Assembly: GCA_002422315.1 (NCBI GenBank) | Contig: DIUJ01000051.1 | Coordinates: 24,887-88,886, forward strand | Source: Bacteroidetes bacterium UBA6161 | GTDB lineage: Bacteria; Bacteroidota; Bacteroidia; NS11-12g; UBA955 | Direction: 5' to 3' | Length of the DNA stretch: 64,000 nt | Shown: positions 14,078 through 30,601 of the stretch, in pieces | Position numbering within the stretch: position 1 is the stretch's first letter | How the letters are laid out: every line of letters begins with the position of its first letter | Notes under the pieces: model-generated | Databases searched by the model: none | What the model saw: the letters and a program-made list of their open reading frames with translations, nothing else | What the model was told of the DNA's origin: nothing | Position numbers and translations under genes: made by a program

Positions 14078-14923
14078 TTAACTTTCGATAAATTGTTTAA
14101 GTCTGTCTAACTTACTTATGTCAAAATGTTGAACAAGATTTATTTTAACCTCCTCTAATGAGGACATTGATTTTGATTTTTTATATTCTTGTGTTTTTAT
14201 CAATAAAATAGGTATGAGATAATCTTTTCCAGAAACAATTCTTAACATGTTATCTGTATTTATTGACCATTTGCCAATGAATTCAGCTAGTTTTAATTCG
14301 TATGTTTCCTGTCCAGCAATAGAAATAGCTTCTTGTCGTAAAGATTCAATATCTTGATTAACCAAATTAGAATCTAAAACAAGTTGATCATTATTTTTAA
14401 TATGGTACTTATTTGCGTTAAAAAGAGTGAATCTACCACCCAAAGAATTGACAATAGCAAAATGTATAAAAAGATTCATTAAACATTCTGAATATTGACC
14501 TAGCCAGTTGTTAAAATTAATTTCATTTTTTAGTTCTTCTTTTGACTTTGTGCCACAATTGAGATATATAAAATTGCAAGTTGATTGTTCATCAATTAAA
14601 AAATTCTCGATGCAATATCTATCAAGTACAAATAAATTCTCTATTTCATTTTTTTCACCTTTAATTACACCTATATCTCCATCAATAATAAAAACTTTTT
14701 TTCTGTCTCCTTTTGGTTCGTTTATACATCTTTCTATAACTTTTTTCTTACAACCTAAGGGGGTTACATCATTAATTTTTATTTCCGGTGTTAACAATCT
14801 TAAAAATAAAGCCTTATAAAACTCTCTGTCTTTAGTCTCATCCTCTGTATAAATATCAACATCATTTCGGTATGTTAAAAAAGTTGATACAAGTCGCTTG
14901 GTTTCATCTGTATATCTTAGCAT
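14078..14923 (-). CDS. ariB: DUF4435/TOPRIM-like protein, AriB-like (putative PARIS effector)
   Basis: N-terminal YTEDETKDREFYKALF (acidic motif followed by FY) and VFIIDGDIG (DxD) fit a TOPRIM/DUF4435 layout. It sits 12 nt downstream of an ABC-type ATPase gene, which is the AriA-AriB order. Confidence 0.6.
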   Translation of the reverse strand: MLRYTDETKRLVSTFLTYRNDVDIYTEDETKDREFYKALFLRLLTPEIKINDVTPLGCKKKVIERCINEPKGDRKKVFIIDGDIGVIKGEKNEIENLFVLDRYCIENFLIDEQSTCNFIYLNCGTKSKEELKNEINFNNWLGQYSECLMNLFIHFAIVNSLGGRFTLFNANKYHIKNNDQLVLDSNLVNQDIESLRQEAISIAGQETYELKLAEFIGKWSINTDNMLRIVSGKDYLIPILLIKTQEYKKSKSMSSLEEVKINLVQHFDISKLDRLKQFIES

Positions 14924-27629: not shown

Positions 27630-28241
27630 ATGAAAAGTGTAGAGGAGTTTTATCAAGAAATCAAAGGGATTTCTATAGGCCAACAAAGGCAGGAGCTTTT
27701 GTTAGAAATAGCAAAGGGAATACAGCAGAATCTCGATAAAAACATAAGACTTAATCTTTTGTTTGTATGCACCCACAATTCCAGAAGGAGTCAATTTGGG
27801 CAGCTTTGGGCTTCTTATTTTAGCCAGATATTAGGCTTTTCGGAGTATATTTCTTGTTTTTCTGCAGGAACAGAAGCCACGGAATGCAATATTCGCACCA
27901 TACGAGCCCTTGAAAGTGCAGGGTTTAGGGCGCAGTTTAGCGTGTGCCAGCCAAACCCCAAGTACGATCTGTTTTCAGGCAAGGAAGTTAGTCCTATTCG
28001 ATTGTTTTCTAAAACTATTGACGATAGTTCTTTGCCCAAGGAAAACATCGTAGCCCTTATGACCTGCTCCGATGCAGAAGAAAATTGCCCGTATGTAAAT
28101 GGAACACTTTTGAAATTTAGTTTAAACTATAAGGATCCCAAAGAATTTGACAACACCCTTGAGGAAAAAGAAGCGTATTGGCTAAAAAGTAAGGAAATAG
28201 CTTCGGAGATATTATTTATTTTAAAACACTTAAAAAAATGA
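27630..28241 (+). CDS. arsC: Arsenate reductase, LMW phosphotyrosine-phosphatase family
   Basis: P-loop CTHNSRRS (CX5R) and downstream TCSDAEENCP. Carries an N-terminal ~35-aa extension. Confidence 0.85.
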   Translation: MKSVEEFYQEIKGISIGQQRQELLLEIAKGIQQNLDKNIRLNLLFVCTHNSRRSQFGQLWASYFSQILGFSEYISCFSAGTEATECNIRTIRALESAGFRAQFSVCQPNPKYDLFSGKEVSPIRLFSKTIDDSSLPKENIVALMTCSDAEENCPYVNGTLLKFSLNYKDPKEFDNTLEEKEAYWLKSKEIASEILFILKHLKK

Positions 28242-29269
28242 CAGACAAAAAAACAGGAATTGGTTTTTTCGAAAAATACCTAAGTATATGGGTAGCTGCA
28301 TGTATTGTGATAGGCGTGGTTTTAGGATCCTTGTTCCCGGGGGTATTTCAAGTTCTTACCCATATACAAGTTTCTGGTATTAACCTACCCATTGCCATAT
28401 TGGTTTGGGCGATGATTTTTCCAATGATGGTTCAAATAGATTTTGGTTCCTTGGGCCAAAGCATGCAATTTAAGAAAGGTTTGTTTCTTACGCTGTTTAT
28501 CAATTGGGTTTTGAAACCCCTTTCCATGGCATTGTTTGCTTGGGTGTTTTTCAAGTATTTGTATGCTGCTTTCCTAAGTCCAGAGCAAGCACAAGAATAT
28601 ATTGCAGGAGCCATTTTGTTAGGCGCAGCACCATGCACAGCTATGGTATTTGTATGGTCTTTTTTAACCAAGGGCAATGCCAACTATACCTTAGTTCAAG
28701 TAGCGGTAAACGACATTGTATTGTTAGTTCTATTTGTGCCCATTGTTTCTTTACTCATTGGGGTTAGCGATATACACATACCCTACGATACCCTTTTTTA
28801 TTCTGTAGTATTGTTTGTATTGTTGCCCCTATTGGCAGGTTTTTTTGCCAATAAAATACTTGTTAGAAAAAAAGGGAAAGAATGGTTTCAGCAGAGCTTT
28901 TTACCGGGTTTAAAACCTATATCTATTCTTGCACTGCTGCTTACTTTAGTGTTAATTTTTGCATACCAAGGGCCACAAATTGTCTCAAATCCTTGGAATA
29001 TATTTTTGATAGCCATACCATTAACCATACAAACCTATTTTATATTTTTTACCACATGGATTATGGGCCGAAAGTTAAGATTAAACAAAGACATCGCTGG
29101 GCCATCGGCTCTGATAGGTGCTAGTAATTTCTTTGAGTTGGCGGTAGTAGTTGCTATTTTGCTTTTCGGGATAGATTCGGGAGCGGTTTTGGCAACAGTG
29201 GTAGGGGTGCTTATAGAGGTGCCTGTAATGCTAAGTTTGGTATGGTGGGTTAATAAACAAAAGGGGTAG
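28238..29269 (+). CDS. acr3: ACR3-family arsenite efflux permease
   Basis: About 10 TM helices with FFEKYLSIWVAACIV and the conserved GAAPCTAMVFVW segment. Overlaps arsC by 4 nt. Confidence 0.9.
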   Translation: MTDKKTGIGFFEKYLSIWVAACIVIGVVLGSLFPGVFQVLTHIQVSGINLPIAILVWAMIFPMMVQIDFGSLGQSMQFKKGLFLTLFINWVLKPLSMALFAWVFFKYLYAAFLSPEQAQEYIAGAILLGAAPCTAMVFVWSFLTKGNANYTLVQVAVNDIVLLVLFVPIVSLLIGVSDIHIPYDTLFYSVVLFVLLPLLAGFFANKILVRKKGKEWFQQSFLPGLKPISILALLLTLVLIFAYQGPQIVSNPWNIFLIAIPLTIQTYFIFFTTWIMGRKLRLNKDIAGPSALIGASNFFELAVVVAILLFGIDSGAVLATVVGVLIEVPVMLSLVWWVNKQKG

Positions 29270-29326
29270 AATGCAGTTAGGAATTCCGCCTAAAAATTTT
29301 CCCTAATTCAGGATTGGCCTAATTAT

Positions 29327-29367
29327 TCTTTTACTTTTTGGCGATGACCGGTTGGGAATTGTAGATT
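29327..29367. repeat. 41-bp direct repeat, copy 1 (TCTTTTACTTTTTGGCGATGACCGGTTGGGAATTGTAGATT)
   Basis: Identical, by direct reading, to 30181-30221. Confidence 0.9.
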
Positions 29368-29441
29368 GAAGATTTCAGATTGAAGATTGTAGATTGAAGA
29401 TTGTAGATTGAAGATTGTAGATTGAAGATTGTAGATTGAAG
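29358..29441. repeat. Six tandem 14-bp repeats (ATTGTAGATTGAAG; unit 2 is ATTTCAGATTGAAG)
   Basis: Units start at 29358, 29372, 29386, 29400, 29414 and 29428. The cognate position in the second copy (30213-30236) carries a different short repeat (TAGATTTT-like). Confidence 0.9.
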
Positions 29442-30180
29442 ATTTTTTAGCCGTGGTTAGTGCTATGCATGGTTATGGCAAGGTTTTCGGTTTCGCATAT
29501 CCTCGGTCTTCGGCTTCGCTCAGACACCGAGGGGCGGATAGTTTCATTCTTTGCTTGGTGTTTGCCACCAACCAGCTAATAAAAATTGACCTAGGCTTTC
29601 AGCCTGCGGTGCTTGTATTATGTCAAATAACCTAAGGCCTTGCCTTAGGTTAGACTAAGCTAGGCTTTCAGCCTATGAAAGTACAGTCAATCATCCGCTA
29701 CCTCGCCCTGAAAGGGCAACTTATCTCCGCTCAAGGCAAGGCCTTGGGGTATAAAAAAGCAACAACAATTTACGCCCTGAAAGGGCAGCTTAGTCTACAT
29801 AGCTACACTGTAAACCTATTGTAGGACGAGTCAATATTGAGCCCGGCTCAATCTTCCCACATTTTGCCCCAATAAAGCGGCATTATTACCCGAAAATTCT
29901 TTAACGGAAACGATTACTTAATTCCTATGGTTTAAACCGTGGGCTAGAATTTAATAAAATTGCATTTGGCAATGAAGCACCAAAGGTGCGCAATCAATAG
30001 CATAGCCTGAAAGGGCTATGAAAGAAATCAAGCAACCATAATAAAAGCGCCAAAGGTGCGCAATAATGTATGCTTTTTGCATTAGCACCCAGAAATTCTT
30101 TAACTTTCCCATAAGGTTGGTGTTACTTGTTTATCAATTTGTTGCGCGACAACTATCACTCTTAAATAAGCCTTTATTTG
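29442..30180. other. ORF-poor, comparatively GC-rich region densely packed with short stem-loops (candidate structured RNA or cluster of REP-like palindromes)
   Basis: At least a dozen 5-7 bp hairpins read directly, e.g. CCTCGGT...ACCGAGG, AGGCTTTCAGCCT (x2), CCTAAGGccttgCCTTAGG, GCCCTGAAAGGGC (x2), ATTGAGCccgGCTCAAT, GCACCAAAGGTGC, ATAGCCtgaaagGGCTAT. Only one 60-aa ORF. Confidence 0.5.
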
Positions 30181-30221
30181 TCTTTTACTTTTTGGCGATG
30201 ACCGGTTGGGAATTGTAGATT
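30181..30221. repeat. 41-bp direct repeat, copy 2
   Basis: Identical to 29327-29367. Both copies are followed by short tandem repeats and then TTTTTAGCCNTGGTTAG. Confidence 0.9.
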
Positions 30222-30397
30222 TTTAGATTTTAGATTTTTCCCGTTTTTTTTTAGCCCTGGTTAGAATTTCATGTCCTCAACTTGTTGCAGGACCACCAAG
30301 CAAACGGTAAAATTGAATACTTTAGTTTTCGACCAAAGTCTTCAATTCCCACAGATTTCTAATTTTTTCTTGTTACTCTAATGCTTAACTTTGCAGC

Positions 30398-30601
30398 ATG
30401 TTAGCATCCTTCGTAATTATTTTAGCAGTTATACTTGTTGCAGCCCTAGGGGTTGGGGTAAGATTACTTTTTGTAAAAGACGCTGCGGTGAGAGGTACAT
30501 GTGCATCTCAGAGCCCTTTTTTGAACAAAGAAGGAGAGTCTTGTAGCTACTGTGGCAAGCCCGCAGGTGAAAAGTGCGATACCGAAATTAAAGGGGCCTA
30601 A
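30398..30601 (+). CDS. Small membrane protein with a Cys-rich tail, unknown function
   Basis: TM helix LASFVIILAVILVAALGVGV, then C...CSYCGKPAGEKC. Confidence 0.45.
   Translation: MLASFVIILAVILVAALGVGVRLLFVKDAAVRGTCASQSPFLNKEGESCSYCGKPAGEKCDTEIKGA

Follow-up and report, generated by a model that had tools for sequence, protein, structure and literature searches.

Positions 29442-30180 of a 64-kb stretch of Bacteroidota DNA (hereafter the window; host genome assembly 2.99 Mb, 34.8% G+C, 89% complete) very probably hold a nest of selfish, hairpin-forming DNA repeats of the repetitive extragenic palindromic (REP) type, comparable to a bacterial interspersed mosaic element (BIME), and not one RNA gene. 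The nest lies between acr3, an arsenite efflux gene, and a gene for a small membrane protein, and is built of short modules, here called A to F. Two of these, D and E, lead to a second and somewhat less secure claim, namely that Acido-Lenti-1, listed in Rfam as an RNA family, is probably half of a ~95-nucleotide (nt), three-hairpin DNA unit and primarily not an RNA gene. Such units would be the ends and the REP-like offspring of subclass-1.2 Y1 enzymes, in a partnership that spans at least Bacteroidota, Acidobacteriota and Lentisphaerota and of which the E and D modules of the window are gene-less descendants. As far as the searchable literature shows, this link is unpublished. The window holds only orphan, gene-less copies, and the locus itself is thus a fairly ordinary example.

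A mosaic of dispersed hairpin repeats

The stretch sits inside a 1128-bp spacer, which runs from the acr3 stop codon (29269) to the open reading frame (ORF) of a membrane protein of 67 amino acids (aa) at 30398. Its G+C content is 42.2%, compared with 35.2% for the window, which places it at the 98th percentile of 739-nt windows. Counting as perfect hairpins those with a stem of at least 5, a loop of 3-7 and at least three G-C pairs, the 739 nt contain 10, whereas 200 dinucleotide shuffles gave 1.1 +/- 1.0 (maximum 5); elsewhere in the 64 kb there are 0.7 +/- 1.2 per 739-nt window and the second-densest place has 5, so that no other part of the window comes near this hairpin density. The longest ORFs in the stretch are 60, 53, 50 and 49 aa, and as positions 29270-30397 contain no ORF longer than 60 aa, the element carries no transposase gene here, as an autonomous IS200/IS605 element would. 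A first-pass annotation, made from the sequence alone, had described the stretch as G+C-rich, hairpin-dense and nearly ORF-free, and in this it was right. The hairpin sequence families and the long-range complementary pair that it listed are also all present, the former as direct repeats spaced 69-70 nt and the latter as inverted repeat I2. They do not belong to one unit, being split between two modules: GCCCTGAAAGGGC (twice), AGGCTTTCAGCCT (twice) and the long-range pair AAGGCCTTGCCTT/AAGGCAAGGCCTT all lie within module D, and module E (29975-30064) has the GCRCCAAAGGTGCGCAAT hairpins, AGCCTGAAAGGGCT and both G(C/A)(G/C)CCAAAGGTGCGCAAT copies. What the annotation missed is that a 46-nt direct repeat, 96% identical between its copies at 29322-29367 and 30176-30221, brackets the block, with variable heptamer repeats after each copy.

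Comparison of the 739 nt with their own genome gave 88 partial matches, and the per-base repeat depth breaks into separate blocks. At least six unrelated modules stand side by side (in the order A, B, C, D, F and E), each of them a member of a dispersed or tandemly amplified repeat family with 6 to about 80 copies in the ~3-Mb genome, and the exact hairpin motifs occur 10-82 times genome-wide where fewer than 0.02 copies per strand are expected. Module maps of contigs C12, C38, C73, C37 and C6 show the same modules in other orders; palindromic units and other conserved motifs are hence found together in one extragenic cluster and recombined elsewhere, as in a BIME-like mosaic. Repeats with at least three copies account for 3% of the genome and for 20% of its crudely defined non-coding DNA, and the genome has 40 long-period tandem arrays (period 42-1278 nt, 28 kb in total). 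One array, at C5:30643-33109 (locus L111), consists of eight 290-nt tandem units, each with a module E, a C-like hairpin and a third hairpin.

BIMEs and REP clusters are known from E. coli and Pseudomonas (Di Nocera et al. 2013, PMC3733652). The present cluster is like them in being extragenic and strain-variable, in its mixture of several short palindromes and further conserved motifs, in its tens to hundreds of copies and in its placement mostly between convergent or co-directional genes. For module E the spacers are convergent in 17 cases, co-directional in 14 and divergent in two, with most copies at gene 3' ends, and this preference for convergent and co-directional spacers is shared with classical REPs. 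The cluster differs in its longer units (the 95-nt, three-hairpin E and the 215-nt, four-hairpin D), which stand among at least four unrelated families and are often amplified to 90-580-nt tandem arrays.

The first-pass annotation had also offered a different reading, a large structured RNA. The 740 nt would then encode one non-coding RNA of the GOLLD, ROOL, OLE or HEARO class. A high hairpin density, a locally raised G+C content in an AT-rich genome and a folding energy z-score of -4.2 on the plus strand are what such an RNA would be expected to give, yet we consider this reading extremely improbable. The minus strand folds equally well (z-score -4.4), and this equal excess on both strands was a first hint of DNA palindromes and not of a strand-specific RNA. 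The Rfam scan that the annotation had proposed found no family at gathering threshold in the 64-kb window; the best sub-threshold match covers only 45 nt, and matches at permissive thresholds, such as small nucleolar RNA, CPEB3 and microRNA, were rejected as obvious chance matches. Moreover, the stretch is never conserved whole, its modules recurring singly and in different orders; the proposed DNA search in related genomes, which covered 40 relatives from the family and order, gave no match to the 739 nt; and the stretch is absent from two close strains and carries extra inserts in three others (see below). Phage and plasmid collections likewise gave no match to the region. The alternative named in the annotation, an accumulation of REP- or BIME-like elements, is the one that agrees with the recurrence of the motifs across the genome and with the tie of two modules to Y1 HUH genes of the IS200/RAYT type (RAYT, REP-associated tyrosine transposase). 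Hairpin motifs scattered in hundreds of intergenic copies had been given as a sign against an RNA; scattered copies are indeed numerous, although they number tens and not hundreds.

Modules D and E and the Y1 HUH genes

Module D contains four hairpins, two of the sequence AGGCTTTCAGCCT (at 29593 and 29661) and two of the sequence GCCCTGAAAGGGC-AGCTTA (at 29705 and 29774) in opposite orientation, as well as internal palindromes at 29628-29652 and 29732-29746; the D hairpin sequence is GCCCTGAAAGGGCAGCTTA. Every copy matches the D model on both strands in nhmmer searches, and folded as DNA the module has a z-score of -3.8. Searching the genome with Pfam Y1_Tnp revealed a single-copy Y1 HUH gene encoding 151 aa (C83:13744-14196), which is bracketed by full D copies at C83:13526-13746 and 14269-14478. 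These flanks share 90% identity over 218 nt, and the outermost D hairpin begins 7 nt past the Y1 stop codon. Homologues of the Y1 protein occur in 60 of the 151 genomes of the order, with one to five copies each. Short GC hairpins of like style stand on both sides of the gene in 10 of 13 inspected Y1 loci, and in five other genera (genomes G041, G051, G008, G047 and G055) the exact 13-mer GCCCTGAAAGGGC lies at most 400 nt, and mostly no more than ~100 nt, from a Y1 gene, whereas a reversed control pattern of the 13-mer occurs nowhere. A dispersed repeat, a Y1 gene bracketed by that repeat and the co-occurrence of both in other genera together form the signature of a REPtron.

The C83 protein carries the motifs NHIH, WQ (as KWQ) and YIQNQEEHH, and its C-terminus (...EYEIEYDETYLWND) has the tail EYDETYLWND. 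Judged by these motifs, its length, its C-terminal tail and its low copy number, it fits subclass 1.2 of the TnpA-Y1 proteins, which Quentin, Siguier, Chandler and Fichant 2018 (PMC6006769) described without REPs and typical IS200 end structures. In common with that subclass it has a size of ~150 aa (about 148 aa in the subclass), the WQ and Y---Q--HH signature, the C-terminal tail (...EYDE.YLW.D), a low copy number and an occurrence in Bacteroidota. It differs in its HUH motif, which is NHIH and not DH[IV]H, and in the conserved hairpin repeats that flank both the C83 gene and the ten related loci mentioned above. The C83 gene lies between a tRNA gene (C83:13123-13195, L107:624-696; 76 bits), ~330 nt away, and a pnp-like gene. 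A second Y1 gene of the host genome is found at C33:30000-31300 (locus L102) and encodes a protein of 162 aa that is 37% identical to the C83 protein; its hairpins are ACCCCGTAGGGGT upstream and GCTCCTACGGAGC downstream, and the locus stands between ~120-nt duplicated segments of its surroundings. With its different hairpins it looks like an ordinary IS200-type insertion and was rejected as a partner of module E.

Module E is a three-hairpin REP-type unit of ~95 nt, whose core reads AAGCACCAAAGGTGCGCAAT - CATAGCCTGAAAGGGCTATG - spacer - AAGCGCCAAAGGTGCGCAAT in the window and, in the alignment of copies from the genome, AAGCRCCAAAGGTGCGMAAT, then CATAGCCTGnnAGGGCTATG, then a spacer and again AAGCRCCAAAGGTGCGMAAT. 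Among the E copies within the genome, stems vary at 0.055 compared with 0.19 in unpaired columns, and are thus 3.5 times less variable. A pair in the middle stem is A-T, G-T or G-C but never A-C, and the plus strand has 39 G-T wobble cells and no A-C mismatch in the terminal hairpins. On the minus strand, the central hairpin and one terminal hairpin of the window copy give the sub-threshold match to Acido-Lenti-1 (RF01687; Table 1), with both helices formed across the full model, and other E copies in the host genome score 27.9-34.3 bits. Across the order, none of the 151 genomes has an Acido-Lenti-1 match that reaches the gathering score. A search pattern for the E hairpin that allowed one mismatch was too loose, giving counts in the relatives at background, like those of a reversed control, and it shows only that E is expanded in the host genome.

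Acido-Lenti-1 has been described as a small RNA (sRNA) without a known function, occurring in Acidobacteria and Lentisphaerae (Weinberg et al. 2010, PMC2864571; Rfam RF01687), for which only occasional proximity to group II introns, and no link to a transposase, has been published. Module E, a divergent relative of this family, shares with it an 8-bp hairpin, a CUA..AU..CG linker and a 5-bp hairpin with a U-rich loop, as well as many copies per genome, tandem arrays and inverted pairs. The differences are that the window copy, at 28.9 bits, is below the gathering score of 37 and that the Rfam model includes only two hairpins out of three. In metagenome contigs the E 20-mer AAGCRCCAAAGGTGCGMAAT retrieved 80 loci from unrelated organisms (26-58% G+C), most of them with a full-length E. 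A Y1 protein is present in 17 of the 80, at 45-52% identity to the C83 protein in 14 and, as partial matches, at 41-42% in three. In 12 of these 17 loci the start of E lies 1-4 nt before the stop codon ends, and a thirteenth (L209) has a frameshifted gene end; the E minus strand is co-directional with the Y1 gene in every gene-abutting case, and the start of the Y1 gene is often preceded, at 40-110 nt, by an inverted E, or else E follows the gene as a doublet. In Bacteroidota, module E represents a ~95-nt three-hairpin unit that in other organisms abuts the stop codons of homologous Y1 genes. On GC-rich metagenome contigs, E-like units reach 38.8-47.1 bits against RF01687 (gathering score 37), and since these were retrieved with the E 20-mer, they link module E to true Acido-Lenti-1 members.

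The same association is seen in a Lentisphaera marina genome and three Acidobacteria genomes, which were reached via loci fetched earlier. Among these four, Acido-Lenti-1 matches (37 and 23) occur only in the two genomes with Y1 homologues, the other two lacking both. A Terriglobia genome (G155) has two copies of the Y1 gene, each with Acido-Lenti-1 matches of 35-43 bits in inverted orientation no more than 54 nt away on either side, and the three-hairpin unit directly follows the Y1 stop codon. The complete unit is present twice with near-identical flanks (L309, C11:147402-148485, and L310, C12:330743-332053 of that genome), so that the element acts there as an autonomous insertion sequence (IS) would, and each unit adjoins a tandem array of Acido-Lenti-1 units with a 168-223-nt period. 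An alignment of 12 gene-adjacent or window E units gave a covariation score of 0.269, compared with 0.126 +/- 0.018 in shuffles, and 23 cells with double-sided changes, compared with 11.1 +/- 2.2; neither value was reached by any of 500 shuffles. Paired cells amount to 81.9%, against 28-49% in slid registers, and five of the seven central-helix pairs change on both sides.

REPIN/RAYT systems (REPINs, REP doublets forming hairpins) and REPtrons were reportedly described by Nunvar in 2010, by Bertels and Rainey in 2011 and by Ton-Hoang in 2012. The REPIN/RAYT literature is summarised in PMC3733652 and PMC6006769. Modules D and E are like a REPtron in that a single- or low-copy Y1 HUH gene is bracketed by hairpin repeats, by D at C83 and by E-type units in the metagenome loci and in Terriglobia, and in that these repeats are also dispersed through extragenic DNA without a gene (D at ~13 loci, E with 55 matches on 24 contigs). 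Inverted doublets, the co-variation of repeat and enzyme between lineages and the compensatory stem changes of the E alignment agree with this as well. They differ from REPtrons in the enzyme, which is IS200-like with subclass-1.2 motifs and not a class-2 TnpA-REP, and in the IS-like doubling of the whole gene-plus-ends unit in the Terriglobia genome.

The same observations bear on whether the modules, above all E, act as RNA, either as sRNAs or as hairpins of a 3' untranslated region or leader, which would stabilise or terminate the acr3 transcript or tune the 67-aa gene, with the repeats being kept for that role. In Rfam, Acido-Lenti-1 counts as a probable sRNA and shows covariation, wobbles compatible with G-U pairing occur on one E strand only, E is mostly found at gene 3' ends, and Di Nocera et al. 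2013 (PMC3733652) take G-T pairs as a sign of transcription in many REPs; in addition, the cluster lies directly behind acr3, and a sigma-70 promoter and terminator scan, which is uninformative for Bacteroidota, predicted no intrinsic terminator on the plus strand. We nevertheless regard such a role as unlikely. In two strains the spacer does without the block, the orientation of E shows no preference with respect to neighbouring genes (5 same, 9 opposite), and the gene-linked unit overlaps the Y1 stop codon and has its mirror image ahead of the start codon, as transposon ends are laid out but an RNA gene is not. In the gene-linked relatives the wobble-bearing strand is antisense to the Y1 gene, so that the better-paired E strand is not the sense strand of that gene; the strand bias of the wobbles could reflect the DNA strand used as substrate or an antisense RNA. 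An RNA role would, all the same, be compatible with mobility at the DNA level.

Strain alleles and movement of the block

Assemblies of close strains were retrieved by exact-protein look-ups of both flanking genes, which gave seven independent assemblies (alleles L117-L123). In two of the strains (L119 and L120) the spacer measures 268 or 280 bp, with one A copy and no block. Filled alleles have spacers of 1128-1135 bp, and an independent Joint Genome Institute (JGI) assembly contains the block and both flanking genes at 99.4% identity. In three assemblies, from other samples, the spacer is enlarged to 1394-1453 bp. These enlarged alleles (L121:1302-2728, L117 and L123) have a ~240-nt insert at window position 29827/29834, just upstream of the hairpin at 29836-29852, which consists of a long hairpin family (GGAATGTCATGGTGAGGCTCTCGAACCA...) and a second module B copy and is 81-86% identical to C73:19189-19377; this two-part insert implies that multi-module blocks move together. 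In L117:2518-4003 and L123:2524-4003 only, a 107-nt insert (CCCAAAATACGC...AATTGGGG) is found near window position 29954. With its imperfect terminal inverted repeats, its TTTAA duplication and its related pieces elsewhere in the genome, it looks like a miniature inverted-repeat transposable element (MITE).

Empty, filled and enlarged alleles together establish that the block is real, dispensable and recently variable, and its variability across independent strain assemblies is incompatible with an essential RNA gene as well as with an assembly artefact. The second of these, a chimeric repeat join made during assembly or binning of a metagenome-assembled genome (MAG), might have been suspected since 14 of 55 E matches and 17 of 56 B matches lie at contig ends, which also indicates that the repeats break this assembly. 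Against the JGI copy of the block with both flanking genes, and the variants in the three assemblies from other samples, it has next to no probability.

Module A has 6-7 copies in the genome, always within similar mosaics, and the heptamer tract (T/G/C)AGATT(G/T) that directly follows it varies from roughly 2 to 14 units across the seven strain alleles; a second heptamer tract of the window lies at 30222-30240. TTTTAGCCNTGGTTAG words end the A-plus-heptamer segment at both block borders, and from the alignment of the strain alleles the right-hand context of A copy 2 is the ancestral one found in the empty alleles. This arrangement bears on the route by which the cluster was assembled. The block might have come, or might go, in one step as an 854-bp unit, through homologous or site-specific recombination between the A copies, for instance by Campbell-type insertion of a circle that had been excised from a different A-bounded mosaic, or by unequal crossing-over. 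The duplicated border segment (46-nt A repeats, heptamer tract and TTTTAGCCNTGGTTAG), at ~90-140 nt far too long for a target-site duplication, points to recombination between modules and favours such a step, as does the retention of exactly one A in the empty alleles; the arrangements A-tail-B-A and B-A-E-D also recur on C12 and C73. We lean against the one-step route, as no locus of the assembly has the modules in this order and could have served as donor, the block neither contains nor adjoins a recombinase gene, and the small extra inserts of other strains show that single modules also move alone. It competes in any case only with the way in which the cluster was put together and not with the identity of the modules.

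For REP-type DNA repeats, the following mechanism can be proposed. By analogy with TnpA of IS200/IS608 and TnpA-REP of E. coli, a Y1 enzyme would recognise the D and E hairpins in single-stranded DNA and cut and rejoin beside them, and this processing would spread gene-less copies. New copies would land beside old ones and accumulate, and whole blocks would then be added, deleted and reshuffled as repeated modules recombine, in this case the A copies at a distance of 854 bp. For module B the enzyme is probably another one, a small GIY-YIG nuclease encoded by a gene with B-type hairpins on either side. If acr3 or the downstream gene is affected at all, this would be a side effect.

Several points weigh against reading the stretch as a nest of REP-type repeats mobilised in this way. 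Mobilisation by the Y1 protein is proposed by analogy only, and the C83 protein, which passes the Pfam cut-off, is below the NCBIfam IS200 cut-off (41.9 versus 55 bits), its assignment to subclass 1.2 resting on motifs and length and not on a phylogeny. No Y1 gene adjoins any E copy in the 89%-complete host genome, in which only a spurious ORF inside an array was found; E would be served in trans by the D-flanked gene, or by a gene absent from the assembly, or would no longer have an enzyme. The one-strand G-T wobbles of E point to a strand-specific single-stranded form, which may be RNA as well as DNA. Neither a GTAG nor a CGTC foot stands beside the D or E hairpins, where the conserved flanks are instead AGCTTA (D) and GCGMAAT or TGATTNCG (E). 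Finally, the copy counts of E include tandem arrays, so that the copies are not independent events, and the empty alleles could be deletions instead of ancestral states.

Smaller modules, flanking genes and significance

The features of the spacer and its two border genes are collected in Table 1. Module B belongs to a family that is both dispersed and tandem, and its core motif has 30 exact copies in the genome. Hairpins of the B type flank a 105-aa GIY-YIG gene (C50:31496-31813), with hairpins upstream and a tandem array downstream. This array, in locus L108 (C50:31300-31927), is a tandem run of GGAATTTCGCTATCTGAGCGGAGCCGAAGACA units behind the UPF0213-like gene. Further small GIY-YIG genes stand beside other hairpin arrays, at C49:559-1227 (a 465-nt tandem duplicate) and C14:15339-15554, and small GIY-YIG genes with hairpin arrays may constitute a second nuclease-repeat partnership in this genome. 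A comparable partnership, of Ssn nucleases with NTS/SRM hairpin repeats, has been described by Chenal et al. 2025 (PMC11893778), and module B is like it in being a dispersed hairpin repeat on both sides of a small, single-domain GIY-YIG gene. The two differ in the pattern and in the protein: the degenerate SRM pattern is absent from the region and unenriched genome-wide (two matches versus 2-6 in shuffles), and the closest solved structures to the 105-aa protein, at most a candidate member of the Ssn clade cd10448, are the UPF0213 proteins BH0048 and EF2693. For these two reasons module B is not filed under Ssn.

Module C is a component of several long-period tandem arrays, and its generic motif has 41 matches on each strand, the pattern being palindromic and the same sites counted twice. 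Within module A, the sequence TTTG-N21-TAGATT is a possible Bacteroidota-type promoter, proposed from its sequence only, and the heptamer tract between this putative promoter and the 67-aa gene might alter the expression of that gene. The 67-aa protein itself has no Pfam match. On the other side, acr3 is the left border of the spacer and lies outside the element; the gene is horizontally mobile, with its best ACR3 match among the species genomes 63% identical and without usable syntenic loci.

Table 1. Coordinates in the window of the repeat modules, single motifs and border genes
Feature	Position	Strand	Evidence and remarks
acr3, arsenite efflux, SBF/ACR3 family	28238..29269	+	Pfam SBF 128.7 bits; ORF list; last gene of the ars operon
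Module A copy 1, 46-nt direct repeat D4	29322..29367	+	96% identity, spacing 854 to copy 2; sole A copy of the empty alleles
Tandem 14-mer (two heptamers, GATTGAAGATTGTA), six times	29358..29441	+	repeat family D1
TTTTTTAGCCGTGGTTAG, end of the duplicated A-heptamer-tail segment	29443..29460	+	direct repeat D11, copy 2 at 30247-30264; aligned with empty alleles
Module B, hairpin CCTCGGT...ACCGAGG at 29501-29532, core GGTCTTCGGCTTCGCTCAGACACC	29476..29540	+	54 blastn and 56 nhmmer matches
Module C, hairpin TTGGTG-TTTGC-CACCAA at 29555-29571	29545..29585	+	GGTTGGTG-N5-CACCAACC family; 51 blastn matches
Module D, quasi-palindromic REPIN-like element, 215 nt, four hairpins	29586..29800	.	nhmmer, ~13 loci
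Isolated perfect hairpin ATTGAGC-CCG-GCTCAAT, unassigned to a family	29836..29852	.	hairpin scan
Module F, low-copy dispersed repeat, 6-7 copies	29850..29925	+	blastn and nhmmer matches
Module E, extended; core 29975-30064	29926..30105	-	55 nhmmer matches on 24 contigs
Sub-threshold Rfam Acido-Lenti-1 (RF01687) match	29976..30020	-	28.9 bits, gathering score 37; E = 5e-5; model positions 1-46
Module A copy 2, short heptamer tract and TTTTTTTTTAGCCCTGGTTAG	30176..30264	+	direct repeats; strain-allele alignment
67-aa Cys-rich membrane protein, right spacer border	30398..30601	+	ORF list; used to fetch strain alleles

With a false lead removed, the hairpin-rich core is to be annotated as repeat DNA and not as a new large RNA. 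The locus functions like a BIME/REP cluster whose REPtron stands elsewhere in the genome. What sets it apart from classical REP/RAYT systems is the IS200-like subclass-1.2 branch of the enzymes in place of class 2, the multi-hairpin units, the lack of a GTAG or CGTC foot and the heavy tandem amplification. The empty, filled and over-filled alleles of close strains amount to a natural experiment, in which repeats are still moving in a Bacteroidota population. If the link between Acido-Lenti-1 and the subclass-1.2 enzymes is true, repeat-rich MAGs, whose contigs these repeats break, could be better annotated and assembled, and the subclass-1.2 enzymes would gain a testable substrate, which would be useful for single-strand-DNA tools.

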